Shown here: piece after piece, positions 20,808 through 55,586 of the stretch
How the letters are laid out: every line of letters begins with the position of its first letter
Position numbering within the stretch: position 1 is the first letter of the stretch
Source: a candidate division FCPU426 bacterium
Lineage (GTDB): Bacteria > Oederibacteriota > JAAXVQ01 > JAUVAV01
DNA length: 64,000 bases
Assembly: GCA_040756875.1 (NCBI GenBank)
Contig: JBFLYH010000002.1
Span: 478,526 to 542,525 of the forward strand
Direction of reading: 5' to 3'
The notes under the pieces: generated by a model
What the model saw: the letters and a program-made list of their open reading frames with translations, nothing else
Told to the model about the DNA's origin: nothing
Database searches by the model: none
Made by a program: the position numbers and the translations under genes

Positions 20808-20825
20808 TATTAATCAGTATTATGT

Positions 20826-21593: not shown

Positions 21594-21610
21594 TTTATTC
21601 CTCCCTCTTT

Positions 21611-22189: not shown

Positions 22190-22225
22190 TTTATATCCCC
22201 CTTAAACCGGGTGATTTTATCATTA

Positions 22226-23995: not shown

Positions 23996-24076
23996 CTTGC
24001 CTTCCCCTCCGGGATATTTGTTCTTTTTATATTTAGACTGACAAGACAAAATTTCATTGCACCTTTTATTTATAAA

Positions 24077-34215: not shown

Positions 34216-34369
34216 CTTTCCTCGCCGTATATATATAGATAAATGGCCCCGGCCAACGTAGACCAGTGGCCCGGGTTCTTTCCCTCCGAAGAAATCCCAC
34301 AACGCTCTTTCCGGGCACAGTCCCCAAAGGAACCACTGTCCGGGAATGCCTGAGGAGGGATCGAATAAT

Positions 34370-34400
34370 AATTTAAGCACAGGCTGCTTGTAAAAGTCAA
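34370..34400 (-). promoter_or_regulatory. Putative sigma70 promoter of topA
   Basis: Minus strand TTGACT followed 18-19 nt later by TTAAAT/TAAATT, with AT-rich upstream tracts. Confidence 0.45.
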
Positions 34401-34528
34401 TAAATTCCAGGAGAAAACCGAGGCAAGAAAAAAACGATTTCAACACGACATACAGGCGGAATTTTCTTATCGGCAACCACAATTGATTTCTCTAAAATAA
34501 CTTCAATATTTCTACAAAAATAATGACG

Positions 34529-35299
34529 TCATTTGCATTGAATAATACCCAGGCCACTCCTGCAGCCAACGATGCGGTTGGAATCCACTCGTCCGGCGAA
34601 GCGCACGTCCATCGCAAATCCCAGCTTGCTTATTTTTTTTCCGTGCGGAGTGGAAACGAGAAAGCGCGTCCAGTTATTAATGCCGCGCGCCGACCTATAA
34701 GCAGCGCTCGCTTCTCTTGACCAGGTTTTTTCCCAGGCCTGAGGATCAGGGCTGCGTTTTCTCAGGCCGGCCAGCAACTTTCCCAAAACAGCGGTATCCT
34801 CGGGCGAGGTGCGGCCCTGATCGCCGGCTGCCAGCAAGACCAGATGTTTTTCAGGCCTGCTTGCCAGCCTGCTGCAAACCGAGGACAAATTGAGCAGGCT
34901 GAGAATGAACACCCGCCTGGCCGGTGCCGCGGCAGCCAGCGCGCGCGTGCCGTTGCTGGTCGTGAGAACCACTTTTTTGGGAGGAAGGTTCAAAAAAGCC
35001 AAGGGCGAATTGCCCAGGTCAAAACCCCGGACCGCCAAACCACCCCGCTCTCCTGCCAGGTAGCACGGTTCTCCGTCCGCACGCAATTGCGCGGCCGTGC
35101 GCCTGGCTGAAGCCAGCGTGGCGCAGGGCAGAATGCGGGGGCAACCGGCTGCCAGGGCTGCAATCATGGTCGTGGTGGCGCGCAGTACGTCGCACACCAC
35201 GACCGTGGCCCCCCGCACATCCGCGACGCGGACAGCGGCCGGATGCGGAAAAAAGTCTACCCTTGGCCACCAGGATGTGCCGTCTGCCGCTTTACGCAT
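34529..35299 (-). CDS. comB: 2-phosphosulfolactate phosphatase family protein
   Basis: DVLRATTT, LAGERGG, FDLGNSP, LTTSNGT, ED motif. Confidence 0.85.
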   Translation of the reverse strand: MRKAADGTSWWPRVDFFPHPAAVRVADVRGATVVVCDVLRATTTMIAALAAGCPRILPCATLASARRTAAQLRADGEPCYLAGERGGLAVRGFDLGNSPLAFLNLPPKKVVLTTSNGTRALAAAAPARRVFILSLLNLSSVCSRLASRPEKHLVLLAAGDQGRTSPEDTAVLGKLLAGLRKRSPDPQAWEKTWSREASAAYRSARGINNWTRFLVSTPHGKKISKLGFAMDVRFAGRVDSNRIVGCRSGLGIIQCK

Positions 35300-37344: not shown

Positions 37345-39477
37345 CTATCCGAACGTTATTTCGATTTCCGCGCCGTCGCGCAGGGGCGTGGTGAAAGCCG
37401 CCTCCTGGCCGTTGACTTTCAGCTTCAGCGGTCCGGCGTTGGGCGGCGGCGTGAGGTTCAGGTCCGCCAGGGCCTGGGACAGGATCGGCGGCTGGCCTCC
37501 GGCGGATTCGACCACGATTTCCGCTTCCGGCGGAACCGGGTCATCCACCCCGGCCGGCTGGCCGTTGAGCAAAATGCGCGCGCCGCCGGTTTCCAGCCAC
37601 TTGGGTTCTCCGTTCACCATGACCTTGATCTGCTGGCGGATGGGCAGTTCGCCGAGCAGGTCGCGGAGGCGGACGGACTCGGGCACGGCCTGCGACCATT
37701 CGATGCGGTCGCCGGGTTTGGGATGGTAATCCGGCGCGCACGGCCGGCCGTTGGCGTGCAACCGCGAGGGATGCATGCGCCGCACTTCGCGCGTTTGTCC
37801 GTTCATGCGGATGGAGATGTTTTCCTCGGCCGGATCGGCGGCCAGGCCGGCTGTTTCCGGAACCAGCTGGGCCAGGCTGCGGTCGGAAACCCAGGCCAGC
37901 TCGCTGCGGTCAGGCAAGGGGTCGTCGCCGGCCGCCGGTTGGCCGTTGGCCGCCAATACGACGGCCAGTTCGATGTTTTGGCCGTTCACGGTGCACCAAA
38001 AAGGCCCCTGCGGCCGCGGCACCTGGGAAGGCCGCAGCACCGCGTCCTGCCCGTCCACCGCCTCGGTCACTTCCACCCGCGAGCCCTCGGCCACCGGGGT
38101 GTCGAGCGTGGCCGGCTTTCCGTCCACGCTCAGCCGGGCCGGTTCGCCGATGGTTCCGGGCACGGTCTGCAGTCGGCCGTCCAGGGTATAGGTCAGGGCC
38201 TGGCCCGGACGGGGGACCAACCGCTTGATCTCGCGGCCCGCGGACAAAAGCGCGTCAAAAACCGTGGGGCGTTCATGCAAGGCCAGCAATTGCACGGCCT
38301 CCTGGTTCACCCGGGCGTCCAGGAATTTGAGTCCCCGGCCGCGCAAGGCGGTCAGGGCGATGCCCAGGGGCGTGACGCCTTCGATGCCGTGCAACCAGGG
38401 CGTGGGGTTGTCCACGCCCGCGATGGTTTCCGGCCCGCGCGCGCCGACGCGGGTGGGTTCGAGTTCCAGCGCTCCAGCCACTGCTTCGCCCAGCCCTGCC
38501 AGGCTGCTGCCGCCGCCGACCATGACCACGGCCCGGGGCGACCCGCCGTTCAACTGCCGGATGGGCTCGGCGATGGCTTGGGCGAGCCGGGCCATATCCT
38601 CGACCAGGGCTTTCCGCACTTCCGCCACGGTCAGGCGCAGCGGCTGGTTGAGGATGCTCACCGCTTCCAGCACGGTGTCAGCCGGCGCGTCGAGCCTGCG
38701 TTTGAGGCGCTCGGCCTCCTGAAAACTGAGCAGATAATGTTCGCACAGCCGTTCGGTCACTTCATCGCCGGCCTGCGTGACCATGGCGTAGCCGAACACC
38801 GAACCGTCGCGCGTCAGGGCGATGTCCGAGGTGCCGGCGCCGATGTCCACCAGCGCGAGGTTCAGGCGGCGCAGGTCCTGCGGCAGCACCGCTTCCAGGG
38901 CCGCGATGGGCTCCAGGGTCAGGCTCGTGGCCTGCAGGCCCGCGCGGCGCAGGACGACCAGCAGCGAATCCACCACCTGGCGCGGCAGGAACGTCGCCAG
39001 CACCTCCACGCCGATTTCCAGGCCCCGGTGGCCGGCAATGTCGTCCAAGGCCTCGCCGTCCACATATTGCCGGACCGTGGAGAACCCGACGCAATGGAGC
39101 TGGCCCGAAGGCTGCAGGCCGGCCTGAGCCTGCCGGACGGCCTCCAGTTCCATTTCCAGCACGGCGGCGTGCTGCACTTCCGCCGGAAACGGCAGCCTCC
39201 GTTTGGCCTGCCCCGGCCGGGTCAGCAGGGCGCGTCCGGCCGCGGCTACGGCCGCGCTGCGGAGCTTCAAGCCCAGATCCGCCTCGAGCGCCGCTTTGAC
39301 CTCGGCCACCACGGCGGCCACGGCCTCGACCTTGTGCACCTGGCCGTCCAGCATGGCGCGGTCCGGGTGTTCCTGCACGCGGGCGGCCAGCACCCGCAGG
39401 CCGCGTTCCCGCGGCTCCACCACCAGTCCCGCGACTTTGCGGGTGCCGATGTCGAGGGCGAAAAGCGGCGCGGTCAC
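37345..39477 (-). CDS. FtsA-like actin-fold ATPase with C-terminal ThiS/MoaD (ubiquitin)-like repeats
   Basis: ALDIGTRKV, LEPIAA, VDIGAGTSD, AGDEVTE, EAERLKR, VGGGS; about five '(V/L/A)(N/D)G.....D.P...G..I' repeats; GTG start overlaps the cheC stop. Confidence 0.8.
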   Translation of the reverse strand: MTAPLFALDIGTRKVAGLVVEPRERGLRVLAARVQEHPDRAMLDGQVHKVEAVAAVVAEVKAALEADLGLKLRSAAVAAAGRALLTRPGQAKRRLPFPAEVQHAAVLEMELEAVRQAQAGLQPSGQLHCVGFSTVRQYVDGEALDDIAGHRGLEIGVEVLATFLPRQVVDSLLVVLRRAGLQATSLTLEPIAALEAVLPQDLRRLNLALVDIGAGTSDIALTRDGSVFGYAMVTQAGDEVTERLCEHYLLSFQEAERLKRRLDAPADTVLEAVSILNQPLRLTVAEVRKALVEDMARLAQAIAEPIRQLNGGSPRAVVMVGGGSSLAGLGEAVAGALELEPTRVGARGPETIAGVDNPTPWLHGIEGVTPLGIALTALRGRGLKFLDARVNQEAVQLLALHERPTVFDALLSAGREIKRLVPRPGQALTYTLDGRLQTVPGTIGEPARLSVDGKPATLDTPVAEGSRVEVTEAVDGQDAVLRPSQVPRPQGPFWCTVNGQNIELAVVLAANGQPAAGDDPLPDRSELAWVSDRSLAQLVPETAGLAADPAEENISIRMNGQTREVRRMHPSRLHANGRPCAPDYHPKPGDRIEWSQAVPESVRLRDLLGELPIRQQIKVMVNGEPKWLETGGARILLNGQPAGVDDPVPPEAEIVVESAGGQPPILSQALADLNLTPPPNAGPLKLKVNGQEAAFTTPLRDGAEIEITFG

Positions 39478-40088
39478 TTGGCCACCTGGATGGCCCGCAG
39501 AATGATGTCGAGGGAGACCTTGTCGGGCATGAGGAAGAAGTACCCTTGGATGACCCGTTGGGATTCCATGAATTCGGTCTCGATGCAGATGACTTCGGCG
39601 CTGGACGGCAACCCCTTGGAAAGCTCGTTTACCACGGCTTCCGCCATGTCGAAGACCAATTGCGGCACGGACTGCAGCAGGAGCAGTCCCAAAAATTCCG
39701 TGAGCGCGTTCAGGTAGGCGCCGGCCAGGATGTTGCCGGCTTCCTTGATGGCCGAGTGCTCCAGCATGGTCAGGGTTTGGCGCTCGCCCGCATCCTGCTT
39801 GGTCAGGAGGCTGGCCAGTTGCAGCGCGCTCTGCCGCGGCAGGATGAGCACGATCTTGGAGGAAATGTCCCCCAACACGTGCATGGTGACGCCGGCCACC
39901 AGGGCCTGGGAACCGCCGACCAGGTCCACCACCCGCGCCAGAGGCAGGCACAGCACCTTGGGCACGGAGATGAGGATTTTCTTGTCGATCAGCTGGGAGA
40001 GCGCCGTGGCCGCGTGGCCGGCGCCGATGTTTCCGACCTCCTTCACGGCGTCCAACTGCAAATCCGACAACGCCCGAATATCCGCCAC
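39474..40088 (-). CDS. cheC: Chemotaxis phosphatase CheC
   Basis: DAVKEVGNIGAGHAATALSQL...ISVP; SAIKEAGNILAGAYLNAL; DMAEA. Confidence 0.92.
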   Translation of the reverse strand: MADIRALSDLQLDAVKEVGNIGAGHAATALSQLIDKKILISVPKVLCLPLARVVDLVGGSQALVAGVTMHVLGDISSKIVLILPRQSALQLASLLTKQDAGERQTLTMLEHSAIKEAGNILAGAYLNALTEFLGLLLLQSVPQLVFDMAEAVVNELSKGLPSSAEVICIETEFMESQRVIQGYFFLMPDKVSLDIILRAIQVAK

Positions 40089-40119: not shown

Positions 40120-42189
40120 TCAATTAATCAAACTAGGCACGTCGAGCACCAGCGAAATGCGCCCGTCGCCCAGAATGGTGACGCCGGAGAAGCCCTTGAC
40201 GGCCTTTAACAGGCTCCCCAGCGATTTGATCGCGATTTCCTGCTGGCCCAGCACTTCGTCCACCAGCAGGCCCACGCGCATTTCCCCCACTTCGGTCACC
40301 AGCACCGCGCGGTTGGGGCTGCGCGATTCCTCGCCCGGCACCTGCAGCACGCGGTGCAGCCGCAGCAGCGGCAGCACGCTGTCGCGGTACATGACCACCT
40401 CGCCCTGCTGCACGAACTTCACCGCCGCCTCGTCGAAATCGATGGTCTCGACGGTGTTGATGACCGGCAGCGCGTACACTTCGCTGCCCACCCTAAACAG
40501 CAGCGCCTGGATGATCGCCAACGTCATGGGCATGCGCAGAATGAAGGCGCTGCCCCGGCCGGCCAGGCTTTCAATGCGCAGGCTGCCGCCGAAGGATTCG
40601 ATCTTGGTCCGGACCGCGTCCACACCCACGCCCCGGCCGCTGACCTCGGTCACCCGCTTCGCGGTGGTGAAGCCCGGCAGGCTGACGAGGTTGATGGCTT
40701 CCTGGTCGGTCAGGCGCTCGCTTTCCTCCTGGTTCATGATCCCGCGTTCCACCGCCACGCGGCGGTTCACGGCCGGGTCGATCCCCCGGCCGTCGTCCTG
40801 CACCTGGATGATGACGTGGTTTTTTTCCCGCGTGGCCGTGAGGCGGATCAGCCCCTGCCTGGATTTGCTTTGTTTCTGGCGTTCGGCCGGGTCCTCGATG
40901 CCGTGGTCCACGGCGTTGCGCAGCAGGTGCACCAGCGGGTCATTGATCTCGTCGAGCACCGTGCGGTCCAGTTCGATGTCCTTTCCCTCCATCACCAGTT
41001 CGATTTCCTTTCCGCCCTCCTTGGCCAGGTCGCGGACCATGCGCGGAAAGCGGTTGAAAATGTGCTCCATGGGCACCATCCGCACTTCCGTGACTTCGTC
41101 CTGGAGGTCGTTGGTGATGCGGTCGAACTGGATCAGGGCCTCTTTGAGCTCCTTGAGGCCGTGACGTTTGGATATCTGGGTCAGGCGGATCTTGCTGATG
41201 ACCAGCTCGCCCACCAGGTTTTGCAGGTTGTCCAGGCGTTCGATGCTCACCCGGATGCTCTGCAGGGCCCGGTTGGCGGCCGGCCGGGCCTGGCGCTCTT
41301 CCGGCGCCACGGGGCGGGAGACGAGCACCTTGGCGCGGGCGCGGGTTTCGCCGAAAAAGTCGTCCACCTTGTCGGCGGTCAGGGTTTCGAGGTCGAAACT
41401 CTCGATCTCCGAAATGCTCTTCAGGCTCCGCTGCAGCAGTTCAGCCTTGCGCTGGGACAGGGCCAGGAGCAGGAACTCGCGGTCGAACTGCCCTTCCTGC
41501 AGGGCCTGCGGCTCGGGATAGCTGGCGATGACCTCGCCGTGTTCGGACAGGGCCTTGAAGACCATGAAGGCCCTCACGCCCTTGAACATGCAGGTGGTTT
41601 CCAGCTTCACGCGGACGCCGTAGATCAGGTATCCTTCGGCTTCGGCCTTGGATACCAGGCTGTCCAGGTGTTCAATGCCCGCGTCAGCTTCCGACACGGA
41701 GGTCATGGGCGCCCGGGCCGCAGCTGGCGCTGCGGCCGGCGCCGCGGGAGCGGGTTCTGCCGGCTGTTTTTCTACGGCGCCCCGGTCCCGCGCCGAGGCG
41801 GGAAGGTCCTGGCCGCTTTCCACCAGCCTGAGTTTTTCGACCAGGGCCGTCACGTCGACCTGTTTGGGCTGGGCCGAGGAAATCTCCTCGATCAGGAGCT
41901 GCAGCGTGTCCAGACACTCGAACAACACGTCCACGATGCCGGGGGTGATGGCGCTCCGGCTGCCGCGGAGCTTGTCCAGCACGTTCTCCATCTGATGGGT
42001 CAGTTCGGTGATTTGGTCGAACCCCATGGTGGCGGACATGCCTTTGATGGTGTGCGACGTGCGGAAGATTTCGTTGAGGGAATGGCTGTCCGAAGGGTTT
42101 TTTTCCAGCGTCAGCAGGGCCTGGTTCAACCGGTCAAGGTGTTCCAGGGATTCGCTGATGAAAAGGTCTTTGTATTCGAGAGTGTCCAT
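40120..42189 (-). CDS. cheA: Chemotaxis histidine kinase CheA (Hpt-P2-dimerisation-HATPase-CheW)
   Basis: IFRTSHTIKGMS, IRVSIERLD..NLVGELVI, HLLRNAVDHGIE, DDGRGI, SGRGVGVD, GVTILGDG. Confidence 0.95.
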   Translation of the reverse strand: MDTLEYKDLFISESLEHLDRLNQALLTLEKNPSDSHSLNEIFRTSHTIKGMSATMGFDQITELTHQMENVLDKLRGSRSAITPGIVDVLFECLDTLQLLIEEISSAQPKQVDVTALVEKLRLVESGQDLPASARDRGAVEKQPAEPAPAAPAAAPAAARAPMTSVSEADAGIEHLDSLVSKAEAEGYLIYGVRVKLETTCMFKGVRAFMVFKALSEHGEVIASYPEPQALQEGQFDREFLLLALSQRKAELLQRSLKSISEIESFDLETLTADKVDDFFGETRARAKVLVSRPVAPEERQARPAANRALQSIRVSIERLDNLQNLVGELVISKIRLTQISKRHGLKELKEALIQFDRITNDLQDEVTEVRMVPMEHIFNRFPRMVRDLAKEGGKEIELVMEGKDIELDRTVLDEINDPLVHLLRNAVDHGIEDPAERQKQSKSRQGLIRLTATREKNHVIIQVQDDGRGIDPAVNRRVAVERGIMNQEESERLTDQEAINLVSLPGFTTAKRVTEVSGRGVGVDAVRTKIESFGGSLRIESLAGRGSAFILRMPMTLAIIQALLFRVGSEVYALPVINTVETIDFDEAAVKFVQQGEVVMYRDSVLPLLRLHRVLQVPGEESRSPNRAVLVTEVGEMRVGLLVDEVLGQQEIAIKSLGSLLKAVKGFSGVTILGDGRISLVLDVPSLIN

Positions 42190-45058: not shown

Positions 45059-46219
45059 TTACCGCCTGGCCACGGCGCGCCGGTAGGCGCGCAAATTCTC
45101 CGCCATTTCGCGGACCGAATCGCCGCCGAATTTTTCCTGGTAGGCCTTGGCCAGTTCCAGGGCCAGCACCGCTTCCCCGACCACAGCTGCGGCCGGCACG
45201 GCGCAGACATCGGAACGCTCGTAGCCCGCGGCCCGGCTTTTCTTGGTGGCGAGGTCCACCGAGGCCAGCGGTTTGCGCAGCGTGGCAATGGGCTTCATGG
45301 CCAGGCGCAGCAGCAGCGGTTCGCCGGTGGTCATGCCGCCTTCCAGGCCGCCGGCATGGTTGGTTTTGCGGCCGAAGCCGCCCCGGCGGTAGTTGATCAC
45401 GTCGTGCACCTGCGACCCGGGCCGGGCCGCGGCGGCAAATCCCTCCCCGAATTCCACGCCTTTGATCGCCGGAATGCTGGCCAGGGCACCGGCCAGGCGC
45501 GCGTCCAGGCGCCGGTCCCAGTGCACGTGGCTGCCCACACCCGGGGCCGCGCCCCAGGCCGAGACCGCGAACACGCCGCCCAGCGTATCTCCGGCGGCTG
45601 CCGCGCGGTCGATGGCCCGGCGCATGCGGCTGGCTGCGGCCGGCTGGGGGCAGCGCACGTCCGAGCGTTCGGCCCGGCGGGCCAGGCTGGCCGGCGCGCC
45701 GGACAAGTTGGCCGCGGCCTCGGACCCAATGCGTTCCACCCAGGAGCCCACGGTCACGCCCAGGGCTTTCAGCAGCGCCTTGGCCGCCGCACCGGCAGCC
45801 ACCCGCGCCGCGGTCTCGCGCGCCGAGGCGCGTTCCAAAATGTCGCGCATGTCCGTGCGCCCGTATTTCAACGCGCCCACCAGATCCGCGTGCCCCGGCC
45901 GGGGCCGGGTCAGGCGGCTGGCGCCCTTCGGCCAGGCCGCGGGTTCCACGGCCATGAGGGCCTGCCAGTTCGCCCAGTCGCGGTTCGGAATCCACAGGGC
46001 CAGCGGCGAACCCAGCGTTTCGCCCAGGCGGACGCCGGCCGTGATCTGGGCCTGGTCGCGTTCGATCTGCATGCGGCCGCCGCGGCCATACCCCTGCTGG
46101 CGCCGCGCCAGGTCCCGGCTGATGTCCCGGGCTGTCAGGGACAGGCCGGCCGGAAGACCTTCCAGCACGACGGTCAGGCCCTGGCCGTGGGATTCTCCGG
46201 CAGTTAGAAATCGCAGCAT
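45059..46219 (-). CDS. aroC: Chorismate synthase
   Basis: LTAGESHG, RRQQGYGRGGR, PRPGHAD, ERASARET, GGLEGG, KPIATL, ERSDV. Confidence 0.96.
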   Translation of the reverse strand: MLRFLTAGESHGQGLTVVLEGLPAGLSLTARDISRDLARRQQGYGRGGRMQIERDQAQITAGVRLGETLGSPLALWIPNRDWANWQALMAVEPAAWPKGASRLTRPRPGHADLVGALKYGRTDMRDILERASARETAARVAAGAAAKALLKALGVTVGSWVERIGSEAAANLSGAPASLARRAERSDVRCPQPAAASRMRRAIDRAAAAGDTLGGVFAVSAWGAAPGVGSHVHWDRRLDARLAGALASIPAIKGVEFGEGFAAAARPGSQVHDVINYRRGGFGRKTNHAGGLEGGMTTGEPLLLRLAMKPIATLRKPLASVDLATKKSRAAGYERSDVCAVPAAAVVGEAVLALELAKAYQEKFGGDSVREMAENLRAYRRAVARR

Positions 46220-46297
46220 GACAGGAGGCTCGCTTTCTGACGGGCTATGGATAACGCGGACGCCTTTCGCAGCTCAACCCCGAACATCCACCGCACG

Positions 46298-48457
46298 CTA
46301 TTCTAAAATATGCGTGGTCAGGAACACCACCAGTTCGACCTTCTTCTTGTTCACCACCGTGCTCCGGAACAGCGCGCCCAGAAGCGGAATGTCGCCGAGC
46401 AGCGGCACCTTCGATTCATCCGTGCTTTCCTCATCCCGCACCATGCCGCCGATGGCGATCGTCTCGCCGTCCTGCACCTGCATCTGCGTGGAAGCCGTGC
46501 GGGTGCTGGTGGGCGGCGGCGTGCCCGGGCCGGTCACGGTCGTGACTGTCAGGGTCATGGGCCCGAGCAGCACGTTGCGGTCCTTGGTGATCTGCGGCGT
46601 CACGGTCAGCGAAATCGGCAGCTCCAGGTAATTGACCTGCGTGCTCACCACGCCGTTGCTCACCAAACTGGTGGTATAGGGCAGGTTCTGGCTGGCGGAC
46701 AGCGTGGCGCTCTGGTTGTTCAAGGTGGCGATGCGGGGATTGGACAGGATGTTGACCTTGCCCTTGGCCTCCAGCGCGGAGAGCGTAGCGTTGAGGTTCC
46801 AACCCTGGGGCAGGGTGCCCACGGTCAGCCGCCCCACGGCATTGACTGCCCGCGGATTCGAACTGATCGAAAGTTGGGGATCGTGGCCGGCTTGATTGGT
46901 CGCATCCCAACGAATGCCCAGGTCCATCTCGTCCGTCCGGCCCACTTCCACGATGCGGGCCTCGATCATCACCTGCTCGGCCTTGGTGTCCAGGCTGCGA
47001 ATCAGGCGGGCCACAGCGTTGAGGTTGCCCGGGATGTCGGTGACCACCAGCGAATTTTCGCCGGTGTTCTCCTGCATAGTGCCCAAAGGCGACAAAGCGG
47101 GCTGCACCAGGGGGCGCAGGCGTTCAGCCTGCGTGTAATTAAGCACAAAGGCCCGGCTGACTAGGCGCCGCTCCACGTCCATGCGCCGCAGCACGGATTC
47201 CACGGCCGCCAAGTCGCTGGGGATGGCCGAGACCACCACGCGGTTGCTGTAGGCGTCCACCACCACTTTGCCCTTGGTTCCCTCGGTCAGGGACGCCTCC
47301 AGGGACTGGACCAGGTTGGCTTCGCCAGCGGCGAGATTTTTCAGCGTGAAGACCTTGGTCTCCAGGGGAAATTCCGTGGCCAGGCCGATCCGCAGCGTGT
47401 TGCCGCTCACCGCGTAAGCCAGGCGCCGGGGCTTGAGTACGAAATCCAGCACGGAACGCAGGGGCTGTTCGTTGATCGACAGGGTCACCAGGGCCTGGGG
47501 GCCCGAGAGGTTCTCCGCGGCCGGCGTGAACACCAGGTCAAACCCGGCGTCCTGCGCCAGGGCGCGCAGCACCGCGCCCACGTCCGCGGCCTGCAGGTCC
47601 ACGGACACGCGCGCGAGCAGGTTTCCCCGGCGTCCGCGGACCATGCCCGCGTCGCCGGATTCCAGTTCGAGGATCACCTGGTTCTGGTCTTGAAACACCA
47701 GGTACGGCGCCGCATCGGCCAGTTGCACGCGGATGCGGACCACGGATTCTCCGGCCGCGGCTTCCTGCCGGGCCGTCACCCGCTGCACCGGCCCCAGGGG
47801 CAGGCCGGAAACCGGGCCGGACCAGGACAAGGCCGCGCTGTGCAATGACAGCGTGAGTTGGCGGCCGGAAGGGTCCCTTTCAAGGCGATAGCGCGCCTGG
47901 CCGTCCGTGGTGATCACGAGGCGGACTTTGTCTTCCTCGGACTCGACCGCGATATCGGCCACTTGATAGGCCGCGCCGGCCGTCTCGACGCCGGCAGCCG
48001 CGGGACGCGCGGTGGGGATGGCTTCAGCCTCCGCTTCCCGGCTCCCTTCCAGACGCAAGGTAATGCCGCGGGACTGGGTCTGTCGCTGCCAACGCACTGG
48101 CTCGTTCAAATCCAGAACCACCCACACTTCGTTGCCGTGCTGGGCCGAGCGGATGCGCCGCAACGGCGGCTGGTTGACTTCGCGCAGGGAGGGGCGCCAC
48201 ACCAGCATGGTGTCCTTGAGCTTGATCAACAGGCGGTCCGGATCGCGCAAATAGGACATGGTGCTCGCGACCTGCTGGTTGGTCATCAACTTGACCACCG
48301 GCTGCCCGGCCTCGGACTGCACGGCCACCTGGGTCAGTCGCGCCAGCGGCCCGCTGGCCGCCTCTTCGGGCTCCCCGTCCTCCTGGGCCCAGGCCAGGCT
48401 GGCAGCCACGGCCAGGGGCAGGAGGAACAGACGGCCCCATTTCGCCCACTGATTCAT
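46298..48457 (-). CDS. pilQ: Type IV pilus secretin with N-terminal AMIN domains
   Basis: Signal peptide, AMIN-like 'YLRDPDRLLI', N-domains, QVMIEARIVEV, KVPLLGDIPLLGALFR, ELVVFLT. Confidence 0.9.
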   Translation of the reverse strand: MNQWAKWGRLFLLPLAVAASLAWAQEDGEPEEAASGPLARLTQVAVQSEAGQPVVKLMTNQQVASTMSYLRDPDRLLIKLKDTMLVWRPSLREVNQPPLRRIRSAQHGNEVWVVLDLNEPVRWQRQTQSRGITLRLEGSREAEAEAIPTARPAAAGVETAGAAYQVADIAVESEEDKVRLVITTDGQARYRLERDPSGRQLTLSLHSAALSWSGPVSGLPLGPVQRVTARQEAAAGESVVRIRVQLADAAPYLVFQDQNQVILELESGDAGMVRGRRGNLLARVSVDLQAADVGAVLRALAQDAGFDLVFTPAAENLSGPQALVTLSINEQPLRSVLDFVLKPRRLAYAVSGNTLRIGLATEFPLETKVFTLKNLAAGEANLVQSLEASLTEGTKGKVVVDAYSNRVVVSAIPSDLAAVESVLRRMDVERRLVSRAFVLNYTQAERLRPLVQPALSPLGTMQENTGENSLVVTDIPGNLNAVARLIRSLDTKAEQVMIEARIVEVGRTDEMDLGIRWDATNQAGHDPQLSISSNPRAVNAVGRLTVGTLPQGWNLNATLSALEAKGKVNILSNPRIATLNNQSATLSASQNLPYTTSLVSNGVVSTQVNYLELPISLTVTPQITKDRNVLLGPMTLTVTTVTGPGTPPPTSTRTASTQMQVQDGETIAIGGMVRDEESTDESKVPLLGDIPLLGALFRSTVVNKKKVELVVFLTTHILE

Positions 48458-48507
48458 AGTCGGGTCAGGTCTCCCATTCCGCGCCGCGGCCCCGCAGGAC
48501 CCGCTAG

Positions 48508-48528
48508 CGCAAGGTGAATACGATTTGC
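48508..48528 (+). repeat. 21-bp direct repeat, copy 1 (orphan duplicate of the pilP 3' end)
   Basis: CGCAAGGTGAATACGATTTGC, identical to 51135-51155; minus strand reads QIVFTLR-TAG. Confidence 0.92.
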
Positions 48529-48547
48529 CATTTATTGTTATACTATA

Positions 48548-50062
48548 CTACTCCAGTCTTATAATCCCGCTGGATTTCATTTGATTTACGCCACTCACAT
48601 CATTGTGCAGCAGAAGAATCTTCCCTTCAGGGGAACCCTTCACAATGAAAATGGTAGGACTAAGCAGCATCATCACCATCTGCTGGCGAGTTTCATAATG
48701 GCCGCCAACCACCTTGGTTTCTCCATCGCCACTCAGGATTGAAGACCCGACCAGTTCTTTCATCCGGACCACTTGCATTGTCATCGATACAAACATCATG
48801 TAACTGTCACCTTGCTTCATCCCAACTAACGCAGTTAAGTGTTCCGGAGTTAAACCCTTCCGGTAATCCCCCCGAAATAAACCACCCATTTGAAGGGGGA
48901 ATTCGAAGTTTATTTTTTTATCAACTATTTCAGGCGTAAGTATGGGCCGTTGAGCGCTTTGGTCAATATTCAACTCGACCTTGGCCGTCCCATCAATCAT
49001 GGCATAATCATAATCGCCCCATTGAATCGAGGGCCCAGCAAAGGACAATTTATCTTCGAAAGTCTCTTTTTCCTTTCCAAACCTCGTTATCTTAAAATCT
49101 TTGAAGCGAATTTCAAAAGCTATTTTCGCCTCCCAAGCCTTGATATAATTAACACCTCGAACGATTCCCTCCCCGGGTTTTAACTCGCCAACATCTGTAG
49201 CTTCTTCCTTCTTCTCGTTGGCGACTTCCACCGAGATTTTATCTTCAGAAGCCTTCGGAATCTTAGCGGTGATTCGGTGCTGGCCGTCTTTAACAGAAGT
49301 CGAATCCCAGGAATGTTGATACTGGTCAATCAAACGGATGGATTGTTTATTAATTATCTTTTCATCAATTATACAGGTCACCACAACCTGTTGCTCCCAA
49401 GGTTTTTTATCAACAACTTTATTTACCGTGTTTACATATGCCCAAGCTTCTTTGGATGGCGCCTGTGGTTTGCCAAATCCGTTATATGCCCTCAGCAAAA
49501 CATCCTGGTCACTATGACCTTCGAGGTCATATTTAAGTTTAGTCTTTTCCCAATTTTTCCTTTTTAAGAATTCGACATACTTTTGTTTGTTTTCAAGGCA
49601 CGCCACTCCCGCTCTGATATTGTAGTCGGGATCGCTTTTTATCTTGTCCATGTCCCACTTATTAAAATCCAGGGGACTGTTTTTATCGTTAATTTGCATA
49701 ATTCCCCAGTCTGTCGATTCCAGTTCTTTTTCCTTCGTCTCTTTATTAATTGAATAATTTGGCGACCCATAGGTGCTTCCATCATCCACAAATTGAACCC
49801 ACCCCTCGCTTTCAAGCCAAGCGACTGCCTCTAGCACTTCCGACGACACAACCGTATTGATATTGCTGATTTTTTTAGCAATCTCCATATAACTTATATT
49901 GCTATCGCATCGGGTTGCTTTTATAACGGCAACAATATTTTGAATCCCAACAATTTCCTGACCATCTTGAGGCAAAGTTATTTTTATACTTAAGGCAAAA
50001 GCCCGAGGGTGAAAAGCAATTAAAGTAACAATGGCGATGAAACATATCGATTTTTTATTCAT
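48548..50062 (-). CDS. Secreted lytic transglycosylase (SLT) nested in an Ig-like domain, plus unknown C-terminal domain
   Basis: Signal peptide MNKKSICFIAIVTLIAFHPRAFA; SLT motifs AVAWLES, DWGIMQIN, DPDYNIRAG, AYNG; Ig halves SIKITLPQDGQEIVG... and ...WDSTSVKDGQHRITAK...ISVEVAN. Confidence 0.78.
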   Translation of the reverse strand: MNKKSICFIAIVTLIAFHPRAFALSIKITLPQDGQEIVGIQNIVAVIKATRCDSNISYMEIAKKISNINTVVSSEVLEAVAWLESEGWVQFVDDGSTYGSPNYSINKETKEKELESTDWGIMQINDKNSPLDFNKWDMDKIKSDPDYNIRAGVACLENKQKYVEFLKRKNWEKTKLKYDLEGHSDQDVLLRAYNGFGKPQAPSKEAWAYVNTVNKVVDKKPWEQQVVVTCIIDEKIINKQSIRLIDQYQHSWDSTSVKDGQHRITAKIPKASEDKISVEVANEKKEEATDVGELKPGEGIVRGVNYIKAWEAKIAFEIRFKDFKITRFGKEKETFEDKLSFAGPSIQWGDYDYAMIDGTAKVELNIDQSAQRPILTPEIVDKKINFEFPLQMGGLFRGDYRKGLTPEHLTALVGMKQGDSYMMFVSMTMQVVRMKELVGSSILSGDGETKVVGGHYETRQQMVMMLLSPTIFIVKGSPEGKILLLHNDVSGVNQMKSSGIIRLE

Positions 50063-51035
50063 ACATGAGGAGCGCATATGGCTCATCACCAACTTTGATT
50101 TTTGACAACACTTTAAAATCACGGCTATCGATAACCACTACCTCGTTATCTCCGGGAACCGAAATAAAGATTTTTATATTATCATTCGTCATACAAATAT
50201 CGCCGCCACTAATGTCAATTGTTTGTACAATACCCATTTGGGCAGTATCGATTTTAACAAACCTCTTTTTACAAGCAATATAAAGATACTTATCCTTTCC
50301 AAAGAACATACGTACGGCGTCCTCATGTAAAGAGATGGTTTTTTGATCTCTTTTAACCAGATCGTAAATCAACAAACGATCGTTTTTTTGAGAATCCGCA
50401 GGATAATAATATAAAATCGCATAGAGAAGATTACCGTCACCAAAAACGACATCTCGAACGAATTCATTTTTCTTCAAATTTAGAGTCAATGCCACGGCTT
50501 TTGTATCATCAGTCGTGTTTATAACAACCAAGGAACCCGTTTTTCCATAACTAAGATATTTCCCGTCAGGGGAGATATCTAAATACCCCGAGGTAATGTC
50601 ATTTTTGTCTATTACTTTTTCCGCTTTGCTGGCAACTAAATCGATAATATAAATGCCAGAATCAGCTTCCTTGCCCCAGCCAACAAGACCAAGATACATC
50701 TTTTTCCCGTCGGGCGTGATGCGTATTTTTGAAAGTCCCGGCGTTAGAAATCCATCAAACTCAATAGTTTTTTGATATGTGAAGCTGTTCTTTAAATAAA
50801 TATCTATATAGGGGGAATAAACAAAATACAAATCATCCCGAAAAACAGCCATCGCTTGCGCACCGACAACAGAGTTTGGTACAGATTCGATCACCTGATA
50901 AGAATCAACATCAATGACATTGATTGTTGCTGAAAACTTGTCTGCAACTAATAATTTTTCTTTACCACTAGCTACGTCGGGCAGAATTAGAGTAAATAAT
51001 AATCCTATGGTAAGTAAAAATTGTTTTTGCCCCAT
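50055..51035 (-). CDS. Secreted YncE/YVTN-type beta-propeller protein
   Basis: Signal peptide; repeats INVID...VI, ITPDGKKMY, ISPDGKYL, VVVID...KIKVGDEP; stop overlaps the SLT start. Confidence 0.8.
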   Translation of the reverse strand: MGQKQFLLTIGLLFTLILPDVASGKEKLLVADKFSATINVIDVDSYQVIESVPNSVVGAQAMAVFRDDLYFVYSPYIDIYLKNSFTYQKTIEFDGFLTPGLSKIRITPDGKKMYLGLVGWGKEADSGIYIIDLVASKAEKVIDKNDITSGYLDISPDGKYLSYGKTGSLVVINTTDDTKAVALTLNLKKNEFVRDVVFGDGNLLYAILYYYPADSQKNDRLLIYDLVKRDQKTISLHEDAVRMFFGKDKYLYIACKKRFVKIDTAQMGIVQTIDISGGDICMTNDNIKIFISVPGDNEVVVIDSRDFKVLSKIKVGDEPYALLMYE

Positions 51036-51130
51036 AACCTTTTCTCCGCTATCTGGTAAATAAAATTTACTTCCGTATAATCCCACCAAAGCCGTTATTC
51101 AATCTGCAACTACTTCTGATTATTAACTTG

Positions 51131-51544
51131 TCACCGCAAGGTGAATACGATTTGCTTGTCGTCCTGCTGCAGCACTACTTGGTTGGAATTATACACCCGG
51201 CCGGTCACGCCGGGAACCGGCTGCTGGTTCTCCTGGTACAGTTTCTCGTTCTTCAACAGGTAGCCGAAGCGCGGCCCGGTCTGCGAAACGAACAGGGCCA
51301 GGCTCCGCCGGGGATTGCTGATCACGCCGGTCAGCCGCAGGTTGGCGATCTCCACCTTACCCATGACGTTGCGCAGGCGTCCGGCCTGGGGCTGCACGAA
51401 GGGGTCGCGGCGGCCGCGGCTCTCGTAAACCGGGCGCGGCGCGCCGGCCGGATTTTCCTGCGCAGCCGCGGGCCAGGGGCACGACAGCCCCGCGGCCAGG
51501 GCCACGGCGAACCAGCGAAAGACGCTACGGTTGCGAACGCACAT
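51131..51544 (-). CDS. pilP: PilP-like type IV pilus assembly protein
   Basis: Position after pilO; YESRGRRDPF motif; LRLTGVI..ALF beta domain. Confidence 0.7.
   Translation of the reverse strand: MCVRNRSVFRWFAVALAAGLSCPWPAAAQENPAGAPRPVYESRGRRDPFVQPQAGRLRNVMGKVEIANLRLTGVISNPRRSLALFVSQTGPRFGYLLKNEKLYQENQQPVPGVTGRVYNSNQVVLQQDDKQIVFTLR
51135..51155 (+). repeat. 21-bp direct repeat, copy 2 (within the pilP 3' end)
   Basis: CGCAAGGTGAATACGATTTGC; minus strand reads QIVFTLR-TGA. Confidence 0.92.
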
Positions 51545-52076
51545 AAGTCACCAAAGTCATTTCGGCGGACACGGAACCGGTCCCGCCGGTCTGATCGCGC
51601 CCGGTCAGCTGCAGTTCGCGGGCCACGGCCAGCCGCTGGAGTTCGGCCAGGCGGCTGACAAACCGCCCGATATCGTGGTAGTTGCCGCTGATGGTCAGGC
51701 GCACGGCCTGGACCGAATAACGCGCATCCTCCGGATTCGGGGCCAGCGGCTGCGGCGTAAACTGCAGGTTGCTCAGGTTGCACTCCGCCGCGATCCGCGT
51801 GACGTCCTTCAGCAGCTCCGGAATCCGCGGCTGGGCCGGCAGGCGACGGTCCAGCTTTTCGAACTGCAGCCGCGCCGTTTCCACCTCGGCGCTCAGCTCG
51901 GGAAAACGGGCTACCATTTCCTGCGCCTGTTTCCAGGCCTGCTCCTGGCCGGTCAGCAGGCGGCGGTGTTCGGCCAGGCGCCGGGACAGCGGCAGATACG
52001 CGAACAGCAGGTACAGAACCAGCACCGCCACCACCGCGGCGCCGATACCCAGGTACAGCCACCATTCGCGCTTCAC
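51525..52076 (-). CDS. pilO: Type IV pilus assembly protein PilO
   Basis: TM helix, coiled coil, LPAQPRIPELL, GNYHDIGRFVSRL. Confidence 0.88.
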   Translation of the reverse strand: MKREWWLYLGIGAAVVAVLVLYLLFAYLPLSRRLAEHRRLLTGQEQAWKQAQEMVARFPELSAEVETARLQFEKLDRRLPAQPRIPELLKDVTRIAAECNLSNLQFTPQPLAPNPEDARYSVQAVRLTISGNYHDIGRFVSRLAELQRLAVARELQLTGRDQTGGTGSVSAEMTLVTYVRSQP

Positions 52077-52654
52077 GGTTTGGCCTCCGCCGGCGCGGGG
52101 GCGGGTGCATACGCCAGCTTGATCTTGAACTGAACCTGGACCTGATCGTCCGCCGACACCTCGGCCAGGGATTCCAGCATGACGTCGCGGAAACGGCCCG
52201 AGCCTTCCAGCCCGGTCAGAAAATCCGCCACGGAGATTTTATGATAGGCGCGCCCTTCCAGCGTCAGCTGGGGCGGATCCGTTTCCTTGGCCTGCTGCGA
52301 CGTCAGCTTGGTCAGCCACATGTCCGGCTGCACGTGTTCGGACAACTGGTCCAAAATGCTGATCCAGACCGCCTGCGGAACCGTCAGGGACCCCGCCAGG
52401 CGCTTCAGCTCGCCCTGCTTCTTTTCCTGTTCAGCCAGGTGCCGCACCGGTCCCAGCTGGTCCGCCAGCGAAGCCTCGGCGGCCTGGAGCTTCAGCCGCT
52501 GCGCGTCCAGCCGCCGGGTTTGCGACAGCAGGCTGAGCAGCTGCAGCACCAGCAGCAGGGCCAGGACCGAAAGTCCGATGATCAGGTAGGTGGTCAGCTG
52601 CACCACCACCTTGGTTTTGCGGACTTTGAGGGGCAGCAGGTTGATTTTGATCAT
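52073..52654 (-). CDS. pilN: Type IV pilus assembly protein PilN
   Basis: MIKINLLP, TM helix, coiled coil, W..IL..LS...PDMWLT. Confidence 0.9.
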   Translation of the reverse strand: MIKINLLPLKVRKTKVVVQLTTYLIIGLSVLALLLVLQLLSLLSQTRRLDAQRLKLQAAEASLADQLGPVRHLAEQEKKQGELKRLAGSLTVPQAVWISILDQLSEHVQPDMWLTKLTSQQAKETDPPQLTLEGRAYHKISVADFLTGLEGSGRFRDVMLESLAEVSADDQVQVQFKIKLAYAPAPAPAEAKP

Positions 52655-52657
52655 GCG

Positions 52658-53764
52658 CTACTCCGGACTGCGCAGCGCCAAGCCCACGGCGATGTTGAAC
52701 ATCTGGGCGTTGCGCTGAATGAAATCCAGGTCGAACTTCTTGTCCGGGATCAGTATTTCCTTGAAGGGATCGTTGATCTCGACTTTCAGATTGAATTTTT
52801 CCGCCAGGTACTTGTCGAGGTTCTTGAGGCGGGCCGCGCCGCCGGAGAGGACGATGCGCGAAATGGGTTTTTTACGGATCGTGGATTCGTAGTAATCGAA
52901 GGAGCGCTGGATCTCGGCCACCAGCTTGTTGAGCACCGGCGAGATCGCCTCGCCGATCCGGGTGGCATTGTCCTCTTTCTTGGAAATCTCCATCTGCAGG
53001 AGGTCCTCGGACTCCACCAGCACCTGCCCCTCCTGGTTCTTGAGCTCTTCGGCCTGGGCGAAGGTCACGTCGAACTCCCGCTGGATTTCGCGGGTGAAAT
53101 TATTGCCCGCCACGGCCACGTCGCGGGTAAGGTGGGTCACGCCGTTTTCCAAAATGTTAATAGTCGTCAGCTTTGCGCCCACGTTGATGAGGCTGATGGT
53201 TTCGTCGGGAATGCGGCCGTAGTTGGTTTCGAAGGCGTTTTGCAGGGCAAAGGTATCCACGTCGATCACGGACGGAGAGAGGCCGGCCATCTGCAGCAGG
53301 TGGATGTGCTGGTCAATGACGTCCTCTTTGGCCGCCACCAGCAGCACCTCGAGTTTCTGGGCGCCTTCCTCCTCCACCTCGCCCAGGATTTCGAAATCCA
53401 GCACCATCTGGTCGATGGCCAGGGGAATGTATTGCTCCGCCTCGTAGTTGATGACGTTTTTCAGCTCCTCCTCGGGCATGTGCGGCATTTTCACGTAGCG
53501 CACAATCACCGAGTCGCCGGAGATCGCGGTGACCACTTGTTTGGCGGTTATCTGGTTGTCTTTGAAGAGTTGTTTCAGCGTGCGGGCCAGGAGTTCGTCG
53601 CGGACCGCGGGGTCCGCTTCCTCCTGGATTTCAGGCGGCACTTCCAGGAAGGCGAGGTTGACCAGCTGGAGTTGTTCCGGGGTTTTTTTTAGCTGTACGG
53701 CCTTGATCGTGTGCGTGCCGATATCCAGGCCGATCAGGTTCTGGCTTTTGAGAAATTGAAACAC
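52658..53764 (-). CDS. pilM: Type IV pilus assembly protein PilM
   Basis: IGLDIGTHTIK, EAEQYIP, LVAAK, DVDTFAL, INVGA, LSGGAA, AVGLALR; GTG start with GGAGAGG. Confidence 0.93.
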   Translation of the reverse strand: MFQFLKSQNLIGLDIGTHTIKAVQLKKTPEQLQLVNLAFLEVPPEIQEEADPAVRDELLARTLKQLFKDNQITAKQVVTAISGDSVIVRYVKMPHMPEEELKNVINYEAEQYIPLAIDQMVLDFEILGEVEEEGAQKLEVLLVAAKEDVIDQHIHLLQMAGLSPSVIDVDTFALQNAFETNYGRIPDETISLINVGAKLTTINILENGVTHLTRDVAVAGNNFTREIQREFDVTFAQAEELKNQEGQVLVESEDLLQMEISKKEDNATRIGEAISPVLNKLVAEIQRSFDYYESTIRKKPISRIVLSGGAARLKNLDKYLAEKFNLKVEINDPFKEILIPDKKFDLDFIQRNAQMFNIAVGLALRSPE

Positions 53765-53872
53765 TCGGGTCTCCTCTCCCAAAGCTACCAACAACCTGAA
53801 TGGGGGCCCCCGGACGCTGCCTTCCCGCCAGGAGGACGTGTATCAACCCTGAAAAAACAATACTTTTTTTTC

Positions 53873-53902
53873 ATCATAAATGAAAAGGCATTGAAAAATC
53901 AA
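53873..53902 (-). promoter_or_regulatory. Putative sigma70 promoter of pilMNOPQ
   Basis: Minus strand TTGATT-N18-TATGAT in the AT-rich intergenic region. Confidence 0.45.
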
Positions 53903-53984
53903 CCGAAAAAGAGATTTTCGTATAAATGGCCTAAAACGCTTTTACCCCGGAAGAATGCGCTTGATTTACTTGGGTTTTATTAGA

Positions 53985-54014
53985 TGAAAATAAATCCCCC
54001 ACGATACTGTGGGG
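53985..54014 (-). terminator. Putative intrinsic terminator after the prepilin gene
   Basis: Minus strand CCCCAC-agtatc-GTGGGG followed by gATTTATTTT. Confidence 0.5.
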
Positions 54015-54021
54015 TTATGGC

Positions 54022-54516
54022 TCATTGATAGCCATAGGTTGTATAGGATTGGCCCTTGGTATCTGTAAGCGAACTGTTGATCCAGATCCGGCCGGTATTG
54101 GATTGCATGGGACCGTCGTATCTCCAACCCGCGCCTTCGCTGCCGGGCTTTCCCAAATCAGGTTCATCGGAAAAGGATTTGTAGGTGACGGTATTCCCGG
54201 CCGGGCCTTTCGAGCGGTCCGGTGGAAAGGTGACTTTGACTTTTGGCATGACCGGAAGATATTCGCCGAACCCGTACCCCGGCGTATGGTCATTGACATC
54301 CAGGGTGGTGGGCCACACGCCCTCGTGATCGCCGTAATAGATGGAGATCGCGGCCTTGATCGCGGCAATGTTGGCCCGCGTAGCCGACTCGTTCGCCTTT
54401 TCGCGCCAGGTCTGCAGATAAGGATAAGCCAGGGCGGCTATGATCCCCAGGATCGCGGCCATGACCGCCAGTTCAATAAAGGTAAAGCCCGCTTCCGGTC
54501 TCCGGCAACTCCGCAT
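54022..54516 (-). CDS. Type IV prepilin / GspG-like pseudopilin
   Basis: Class III signal AG|FTFIEL with hydrophobic helix ILGIIAALAYP; AI.IYYGD.EG.WP. Confidence 0.88.
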   Translation of the reverse strand: MRSCRRPEAGFTFIELAVMAAILGIIAALAYPYLQTWREKANESATRANIAAIKAAISIYYGDHEGVWPTTLDVNDHTPGYGFGEYLPVMPKVKVTFPPDRSKGPAGNTVTYKSFSDEPDLGKPGSEGAGWRYDGPMQSNTGRIWINSSLTDTKGQSYTTYGYQ

Positions 54517-54521
54517 GATTG

Positions 54522-55586
54522 CTACATGGTTCCTTTCACCAATTGCTGCAAATCCCGCGGGTCCGTGGTCCGCGAAAAAATCTCGTTGTAGGTCACCAGT
54601 TGTTTTTGGTACAGCTCGTAGAGGGCCTGATTCATGGTCTGCATGCCGTACTCGCCGCCGGTCTGCATCAGCGAATACACCTGGTGTTCCTTCTCTTCGC
54701 GGATCAGGCTCCGGACCGCGGAGGTTGGGATCAGAATCTCGCAGGCCAGCACCCGGCCGGAAGCGTACCCGCGCGGAAGCAATTGCTGGATCAGCACCGC
54801 CTGGAGCACCAGGGACAGCTGCATGCGGACGCGGTATTGCTGGTGCGGTTCGAACGCGTCCACGATCTGGGTGATGGCCTGGACCGAATCCGTGACCGGC
54901 AGGGCTCCGAACACCAGATGCCCGGTCTCCGCCAGCCGCAAGGCCGTGCGCAGGGTGTCGAGGTCGGTCATTTCGCCGAGCAGCACCACGTCGGGGTCGC
55001 AGGAGCGGGTGCTTTTCAGCGCCAGGGTTTGGTTCGGGCTGTCATAACCGATTTCCCGCTGATGCACGATGGCCTTGGCTTTGGCATGCTGGTATTCGAT
55101 CGGATCTTCCAGGGTCAGCACATGCACGGATTTGTTCTGGTTGATCCATTCCACCATGGCGGCCAGGGTGGTGGATTTCCCGGAACCCGTCGGGCCGGCC
55201 ACGATCACCAGGCCTTTGGGCAGCTGGACGATGTCGGAGATGATGGGCGGCAGTCCCAACTCCTCGAACGTGGGCAATTGCAGGGGAATGCCGCGCAGGT
55301 TGGCCGCCACCATGCCGCGCTGTTTGATGACCTGCATGCGGACCCGCCCGATATTCTCCAGGCTGAAGGACACTTTGAGCTCCGCATCCCGCTCGAAACG
55401 GGCGCGCTGCTCGTCCGTAAGCACGCTGAACACCAAGGCCGCGCAGGCCGTGGGCTGCAGCACTTCCAGGTCCGTGGGAACCAGTTCGCCGTCGATGCGC
55501 AGGGCCGGGGGGGAATCAGGGGAGAGATGCAGATCCGAGGCTTTCTTCTCGAACATCAGCCGAATCAAGGCATCCATGGTCAGCAT
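54522..55586 (-). CDS. pilT: PilT/PilU-family retraction ATPase, divergent
   Basis: ASDLHL, RIDG, GPTGSGKSTTLAAM, TLEDPIEY, QREIG, DPDV..GE, AETGHLV, AVRSLIRE, GMQTM. Confidence 0.85.
   Translation of the reverse strand: MLTMDALIRLMFEKKASDLHLSPDSPPALRIDGELVPTDLEVLQPTACAALVFSVLTDEQRARFERDAELKVSFSLENIGRVRMQVIKQRGMVAANLRGIPLQLPTFEELGLPPIISDIVQLPKGLVIVAGPTGSGKSTTLAAMVEWINQNKSVHVLTLEDPIEYQHAKAKAIVHQREIGYDSPNQTLALKSTRSCDPDVVLLGEMTDLDTLRTALRLAETGHLVFGALPVTDSVQAITQIVDAFEPHQQYRVRMQLSLVLQAVLIQQLLPRGYASGRVLACEILIPTSAVRSLIREEKEHQVYSLMQTGGEYGMQTMNQALYELYQKQLVTYNEIFSRTTDPRDLQQLVKGTM

Follow-up and report, generated by a model that had tools for sequence, protein, structure and literature searches.

How did two genes of foreign composition come to lie between pilP and pilQ while both of these genes stayed whole, and what might they contribute to a pilus machine? 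The question is raised by the pilMNOPQ operon in a stretch of 64,000 nucleotides from a candidate division FCPU426 bacterium (contig JBFLYH010000002.1). This whole stretch is called the window below, and coordinates refer to it unless another sequence is named. The operon is read from the minus strand. At the pilP-pilQ junction it carries an AT-rich block with two open reading frames, here ORF A and ORF B, and the block is bordered by two copies of the last 21 nucleotides of pilP. An earlier note on this DNA had described the block as an integrase-free cassette. We compared it with L001, an uncultured-bacterium metagenome-assembled genome (MAG), and the features on which the comparison rests are as follows, in the order of transcription.

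51131..51544, minus strand: pilP, 137 aa, intact, with its native C terminus ...QIVFTLR; assigned from its position and its relatives
51135..51155, no strand assigned: direct repeat copy 2, which makes up the 3'-terminal 21 nt of the working pilP; from repeat searches and the L001 alignment
48529..51134, minus strand: unique inserted DNA, 2,606 bp, G+C content (GC) ~0.40; recognized by its absence from L001 and its composition
51036..51134, minus strand: AT-rich leader of the insert, 99 nt, with GGAG preceding the ATG of ORF B; from reading the sequence
48508..48528, no strand assigned: direct repeat copy 1, the pilQ-proximal, orphaned copy of pilP's last 21 nt; from repeat searches, with L001 7932-7952 aligning to it
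48504..48506, minus strand: the original pilP stop (TAG), now displaced; its CGC TAG ending is that of L001 pilP
48458..48503, minus strand: native pilP-pilQ spacer with the pilQ ribosome-binding region, undamaged; aligns with the L001 spacer from pilP stop to pilQ ATG
46298..48457, minus strand: pilQ, secretin of 719 aa; Pfam Secretin 4.7e-42, with Secretin_N and AMIN, and 84% identity to L001 PilQ

The insertion at the 3' end of pilP

The 21-mer occurs exactly twice in the 64-kb window, at 48508-48528 and 51135-51155 as read on the plus strand, and allowing up to three mismatches adds no further site. Two matches were found in 0 of 100 shuffles of the window, and among its 56 maximal exact direct repeats of at least 14 nt the 21-mer is the longest (the runner-up has 17 nt). 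Identity stops abruptly, with the flanking bases differing at once on both sides of both copies. The only symmetry that we could read within the 21-mer is a 4-nt inverted GCAA...TTGC; Xer-dependent integrating elements (IMEX), for comparison, enter at dif-like sites of 28 bp. The copies also mark a drop in GC, which in 300-nt windows is 0.35 to 0.46 between them versus 0.65 to 0.71 outside. On the minus strand, which is the gene strand, both copies translate as QIVFTLR followed by a stop. The copy attached to pilP continues with G+TGA (codons CGG TGA; stop at 51131-51133) and the pilQ-proximal copy with C+TAG (CGC TAG; stop at 48504-48506). The first 4 nt of the leader, G+TGA, finish the last pilP codon (Arg) and give a new stop, and PilP therefore ends at its native residue.

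Relatives were sought by scanning species-representative genomes with PilQ, which returned a single relative among 53 pattern-matched stretches, the genome of the window not being among the results. This genome, L001, is the sole relative with visible context. Its pilP ends in ...QIVFTLR and CGC TAG, 47 nt follow, and the ATG of pilQ comes next; the site is empty. By blastn, L001 1-7952 corresponds to window 59150-51135 and L001 7932-10165 to window 48528-46299. A single stretch of 21 nt in L001 (7932-7952) thereby aligns to both window copies, and window 48529-51134 is left with no counterpart. The L001 stretch is identical to the window 21-mer at 19 of 21 positions, and the two differences are synonymous third positions (CAG and GTG in L001, CAA and GTA in the window). 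Neither ORF A nor ORF B has a further copy by tblastn (E ≤ 1) in 18 kb of L001 or in the rest of the window. Because the L001 junction is empty, the comparison of the two sequences indicates that the window carries a real insertion of 2,606 bp together with a 21-bp duplication.

The inserted DNA also differs from its host in composition. GC at third codon positions (GC3) is 0.44 in ORF A and 0.34 in ORF B, versus 0.80 to 0.86 in pilM to pilQ and other host genes. The tetranucleotide correlation, normalized for base composition, is 0.54 to 0.60 between insert and host, versus 0.93 to 0.95 between host regions. These values point to foreign DNA, and because GC3 lies at 0.34 to 0.44 versus 0.80 to 0.86 in the operon, the DNA appears unameliorated. 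Given this foreign composition, a gain in the window lineage is much more likely than a loss in L001.

We then considered what the insert lacks. Neither ORF matches an integrase or a transposase in Pfam, NCBIfam, or PHROGs, and PHROGs returned nothing at all for either. No terminal inverted repeats join the insert ends and no transposase is encoded, so that the insert is not a recognizable transposon. An integron cassette was set aside on two counts: the putative circle junction (142 nt, folded as DNA) shows no attC-like hairpin (z of 0.07 and −0.91 versus 200 shuffles), and no intI/attI platform flanks the pil operon. A phage or plasmid origin was likewise rejected, as neither tblastn with ORF A nor blastn with the whole insert gave a match in the plasmid and phage collections and PHROGs was silent, and so was a defense system, for which PADLOC had no match. 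No structured RNA was recognized in or around the insert (no Rfam match at E ≤ 0.1 over 46000-54600), and the window holds no tRNA genes. Neither promoter-like sites (6 versus 6.4 in shuffles) nor terminator-like sites (4 versus 3.1) are in excess. The sole recombinase in the window is an XerC/XerD-type tyrosine recombinase at 29898-30761 on the minus strand, some 18 kb away and adjoining hslV/hslU. It scores 326.2 versus the XerC equivalog cut-off of 335.15 and 124.8 bits versus the integron integrase cut-off of 265; the gene, beside hslVU, probably has a housekeeping role.

Much of what the earlier note had claimed holds on this evidence. The repeat search and the GC scan bear out its duplication of the pilP 3' end at the GC/AT boundaries, reading of the gene strand agrees with its view that both copies encode QIVFTLR and a stop and leave pilP intact, and the three protein family collections confirm that no integrase or transposase lies inside. 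Its interpretation of the block as an insertion is upheld by the empty pilP-pilQ junction of L001.

Routes of insertion

Since the insert encodes neither an integrase nor a transposase and shows neither terminal inverted repeats nor a hairpin of the attC kind, the mechanism of its insertion has to be inferred. We favor a recent horizontal acquisition by att-type site-specific recombination, with the enzyme acting in trans or since lost, and assign this reading a probability of about 0.5. A promoterless, terminator-less foreign module of two genes would have entered in operon orientation at the last codons of pilP. A circular intermediate would have recombined with the chromosome inside the 21-bp common core to give attL and attR, and the recombinase would be encoded elsewhere, or the element would once have been larger and since been trimmed. 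The outcome would resemble a cis-mobilizable element (CIME) with no integrase of its own. As it leaves pilP whole, spares the translation start of pilQ, and lets read-through continue from pilM as far as pilQ, the insert would presumably be cotranscribed with the operon. Its cargo, a periplasmic pair of a transglycosylase like EtgA and a propeller regulator or inhibitor, would then be coexpressed with the pilus alignment complex and the secretin and may have a role in the pilus. Two properties of the insert argue for such an att-type element. With it come the final base of the Arg codon and a stop directly after, the chance of an immediate stop being 3/64, and it is co-oriented, compact, and placed so that the pilQ start region is intact.

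The comparison with known elements is close in some respects. In the available part of the source, CIMEs are described as remnants of integrative elements in which the integrase is missing and attL and attR are retained (PMC5704250). Like a CIME so described, the insert is bordered by direct repeats of which the target gene's 3' end is part, carries no integration or transfer genes, and leaves its target gene whole. Unlike a CIME in that description, it has no known cognate element or integrase, is only 2.6 kb long and all cargo, and has its target, pilP, inside an operon, so that the insert must be read through for pilQ to be expressed. The insert is also like an integron cassette in being small, promoterless, co-oriented, situated in a transcribed slot, and devoid of a recombinase. 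It differs in having no attC-like hairpin and no intI or attI nearby, and integron insertion leaves no 21-bp duplication.

Several observations weigh against the att-type reading. No recombinase of matching specificity was found within the 64-kb window, and a 99-nt leader and a 19-nt trailer, which are all the noncoding DNA of the insert before ORF B and after ORF A, offer little room for arm-type binding sites. Both repeat copies carry the lineage-specific synonymous variants CAA and GTA, which are absent from L001. A foreign attP would not be expected to match such variants, and the sequences better fit a duplication of host DNA or an element already resident in the lineage. Searches of other genomes, plasmids, and phages did not find the cassette proteins, and there is for that reason no sign that the cassette circulates. 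Finally, the context of a single relative was available, and L001 may, as a formal possibility, have lost the block by precise excision.

The lineage-specific variants bear on two other routes as well. In the first, a trans-acting enzyme would have cut the 3' end of pilP with a 21-nt stagger and joined a linear DNA of 2,606 bp, the gaps then being filled to give a target-site duplication. Such a route is akin to integration by casposases or Cas1-type enzymes, whose duplications are unusually long. It accounts well for copies that are exact, that share the synonymous variants of the host lineage, and whose identity ends abruptly at both sides. However, the insert has no terminal inverted repeats and encodes neither a transposase nor Cas1, we are aware of no family whose insertions combine such ends with a 21-bp duplication, and the immediate in-frame stop would have to be ascribed to chance (3/64) or selection. 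We regard this route as rather unlikely.

In the second, host or illegitimate recombination would have produced a Campbell-type single crossover with a circular DNA in which the 21 nt were present by chance or through an earlier acquisition. One conceivable source of such a circle is excision in a sibling cell followed by uptake through transformation. The anatomy left behind is the same as that of att-type integration, and the exact match to the lineage variants suggests that the 21 nt came from this lineage. A length of 21 nt lies, however, at the lower limit for RecA-dependent exchange, and the first insertion is left unexplained; this route seems to us decidedly unlikely.

It is very improbable that the two genes are ancestral at this position and were lost from L001. 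Deletion between the direct repeats would give exactly the empty site observed, and the context is known for one relative only, but GC3 of the insert genes is about half that of every neighboring gene, these genes have no close relatives anywhere searched, and the repeats are still identical. An assembly artefact, in which an overlap of k-mer size joined foreign AT-rich DNA into the contig, is hardly credible. In its favor, metagenome assemblers often use 21 as their smallest k, the contig, at 1.13 Mb, has the character of a MAG, and a second AT-rich block lies in the same window. However, an artefact requires the same 21-mer at both foreign ends or a 2.6-kb circle with the 21-mer, which is the picture of an excised element, it makes the operon strand, the in-frame completion of pilP with an immediate stop, and the intact pilQ start all coincidental, and the second block has no such repeat.

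The earlier note had proposed a site-specific or microhomology-mediated insertion at an unusual target, mobilized in trans, in a slot that might be exchangeable and from which the cassette might still excise. Insertion stands; the mechanism is not established, since several routes fit and no matching recombinase was found. The idea of an exchangeable slot found no support, as the L001 site is empty with no other cassette in it, the proteins have only remote relatives, and no plasmid or phage matched; for continuing excision there is so far no support either. Since integrative elements are well established to target protein-coding genes at their 3' ends (reviewed in PMC5704250), the target is also less unusual than the earlier note implied.

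The inserted genes and the host operon

The cargo is more interesting than the target site, and its identity goes beyond the earlier note. ORF A and ORF B span 2,488 of the 2,606 unique bases, both are intact and in operon orientation, and the end of ORF B, with its stop, shares 8 nt with the start of ORF A.

50055..51035, minus strand: ORF B, 326 aa, signal peptide and seven-bladed YVTN/YncE-type beta-propeller; from NCBIfam, AF2, and Foldseek
48548..50062, minus strand: ORF A, 504 aa, signal peptide, Ig-like strands, SLT-type domain (~58-227), second Ig-like part, and variable beta-rich C-terminal domain

Both proteins begin with N termini that resemble signal peptides (judged by reading, with no predictor run). 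ORF A is, by prediction, an exported SLT-type lytic transglycosylase, with EtgA as its closest solved relative; its enzymatic activity is likewise predicted. A word-indexed protein search found ORF A itself and one other protein (P0004, 40% identical) among 6,678 candidates, and P0004 carries PF01464. Among 5.8 billion protein clusters the nearest relative shares 40% identity over 64% of the length. An exhaustive HMMER search recovered 83 proteins at E ≤ 0.001, 42 at 1e-10, and 13 at 1e-30. We aligned 24 of these 83 (the query, P0004, P0010-P0029, P0033, and P0034), with fragments and weaker matches excluded. E84, W88, G95, D118, G120, N125, Y193, and N194 do not vary across the 24 aligned members, and S85, M122, and Q123 are near-invariant. 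In family 1 lytic transglycosylases we take their counterparts to be the Glu-Ser, GxMQ, and AYNG motifs. When a profile of the family was compared with PDB sequences, only two matched at E ≤ 0.01, and both are EtgA (8urn_A, 4.5e-5; 4xp8_A, 2.9e-4). A feature match to an SLT cluster of the Atlas (0.81) serves as a lead only. The AF2 model of ORF A (pLDDT 74.6, pTM 0.58) is confident over residues 21-280. A fold search with the whole model gave 0 matches at E ≤ 0.001 in the PDB, a result that is uninformative for a multi-domain model.

The family varies in its C-terminal part. Twelve long forms (368-596 aa; the query, P0004, and P0010-P0019) have the first ~300 residues in common and then diverge completely, and in the short forms (267-361 aa) the shared part is limited to the enzyme domain. 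The C-terminal domains of the long members are unrelated to one another and comprise ~170 to 300 residues, which in the window corresponds to 48548-49200. These alignments give the C-terminal third of ORF A the appearance of a module that can be swapped.

ORF B is predicted with confidence to be an exported seven-bladed propeller of the YVTN/YncE type. The NCBIfam model beta_rpt_yvtn (TIGR02276) matches at 30.6 bits, above its cut-off of 27.85, and the AF2 model has 28 strands (pLDDT 81.2, pTM 0.81). The best solved match by Foldseek is the YVTN propeller 1l0q_A (E of 1.3e-16, TM 0.76), and YncE-type clusters of the Atlas match at 0.95 by features and with TM 0.80 to 0.85 by structure. Its relatives in a protein search are only remote propellers: of 2,398 candidates five proteins matched, one of them ORF B, and the other four did so at E of 5e-5 or weaker.

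We also modeled a complex of ORF A residues 24-504 with ORF B residues 24-326, using our own alignments. The pair scored 0.63, and the best of three controls scored 0.00. A score of 0.63 is attained by 116 of 157 solved complexes and by 2 of 215 mismatched pairs, counts that are rough where, as here, own alignments are used. At least 71% of contacts agree between runs, with a partner pLDDT of at least 81. The confident contacts on ORF A lie at residues 102-135, 155-169, and 192-199, which form a beta-hairpin and helices of the enzyme domain, and they include the invariant D118, N125, and N194. This model supports, rather than demonstrates, binding of ORF B to the catalytic domain of ORF A. In the simplest interpretation, ORF B would be a regulator or inhibitor that sits on the enzyme.

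Three points count against this reading of the pair. Pfam SLT matches ORF A at 18.0 bits, below its cut-off of 21.3; the C-terminal 170 residues of ORF A (beyond ~330) are poorly modeled; and the catalytic E84 falls outside the confident contact residues of the predicted complex.

Upstream of the insert, the remaining genes of the operon were assigned as follows.

52658-53794, minus strand: pilM; Pfam PilM_2 8.9e-66
52073-52654, minus strand: pilN; Pfam PilN 1.9e-13
51525-52076, minus strand: pilO; Pfam PilO 2e-21

The name pilP was given to the gene between pilO and pilQ, whose product has 28 homologues at E ≤ 0.001 among 68 candidates. Three of the 28 are named PilP by their source and one carries PF04351. 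Four relatives are close (P0092-P0095), P0095 being encoded on the L001 contig. Pfam PilP has no match on the 137-aa protein of the window and a weak one, below the cut-off, on the L001 orthologue (E of 0.0029). The C-terminal column of PilP is the same in 23 of 27 aligned relatives, and the other four extend 1 to 2 residues further. A pilin-like gene (164 aa, with N-terminal GspG/PilA-type matches) is located at 54022-54516, upstream of pilM. The stretch between it and pilM (53750-54199) has a low GC of 0.43 to 0.47, and L001 dips likewise at 5101-5400 (0.40).

Elsewhere in the window, a second AT-rich block extends over 19100-24076 (GC of 0.32 to 0.54 versus ~0.62), between argG and a GT2 glycosyltransferase/argF and on the strand of these neighbors. 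Its four ORFs encode a PMT_2/Agl23-like membrane glycosyltransferase, a fiber-like protein (Bdello_MAT_N at 2e-8, with phage tail-collar fiber families), a small protein with a C-terminal sorting domain of the type IX secretion system, and a PorV/PorQ-family protein (4.3e-38). No direct repeat of at least 14 nt was found at its borders (19.1-24.05 kb), and its tetranucleotide correlation with the pil insert is 0.64. GC also dips, to 0.51, at 34001-35000, in the region where topA starts and a 2-phosphosulpholactate phosphatase-family gene (34529-35299) ends. An 868-aa protein with an actin-like ATPase domain of the PilM/FtsA type, far longer than a normal PilM, is encoded at 37345-39951 on the minus strand and adjoins cheA (40120-42189).

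A predicted wall enzyme in a pilus operon

Besides EtgA, the specialized lytic transglycosylases of secretion machines include IagB and VirB1. EtgA itself is localized to the type III secretion system under assembly to open the wall, according to the accessible portion of PMC10880428. ORF A is like EtgA in its profile match, its conserved catalytic Glu-Ser and other conserved residues, and the position of its gene inside the operon of an envelope-spanning machine. It is unlike the EtgA-type enzymes in its length of 504 aa, its Ig-like parts, its variable C-terminal domain, and its propeller partner, and its gene appears to be a recent foreign insert in a type IVa pilus operon rather than one of the operon's conserved parts.

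ORF A and ORF B can also be set beside the effector-immunity pair Tse3-Tsi3 (PMC3792639, available in part). Both are bicistronic exported pairs, and in ours the partner is likewise predicted to lie on the catalytic domain. The insert proteins differ from that published pair in that no secretion-system marker or delivery domain was recognized in them and in that the partner has a propeller fold.

The significance of the cargo lies in the statement, in the excerpted text of Carter et al., that type IVa pili have no dedicated wall hydrolase. In that text, type III and type IV secretion systems have wall enzymes and the type IVa pilus system has none (PMC5285504); for type IVa pili the authors propose pre-installation at future poles (PMC5285504). 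Among the papers listed for pilus-operon and transglycosylase terms, none, as judged by titles and abstracts, reports a transglycosylase gene within pilMNOPQ. In its fullest form, our interpretation would make the stop-codon end of pilP an attachment site for promoterless cassettes, used by a recombinase in trans, through which a type IVa pilus machine would have received a dedicated wall-cutter and a propeller regulator. Taken whole, this is improbable. If it is true, the machine could be fitted into the existing cell wall and not only at new poles, and if the pair acts in pilus assembly, it would be a counter-example to the view, as worded in the consulted part of Carter et al., that type IVa pili have no wall enzyme (PMC5285504).

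A flanking repeat normally signals an integrase, and none is present here; the insert thus bears on how small integrase-less elements originate and move. It is also a clean natural case of an essential operon that received foreign genes in its interior and was left unbroken. If the two genes are instead a hitch-hiking enzyme-inhibitor pair, the pilus operon can act as an expression platform for them.

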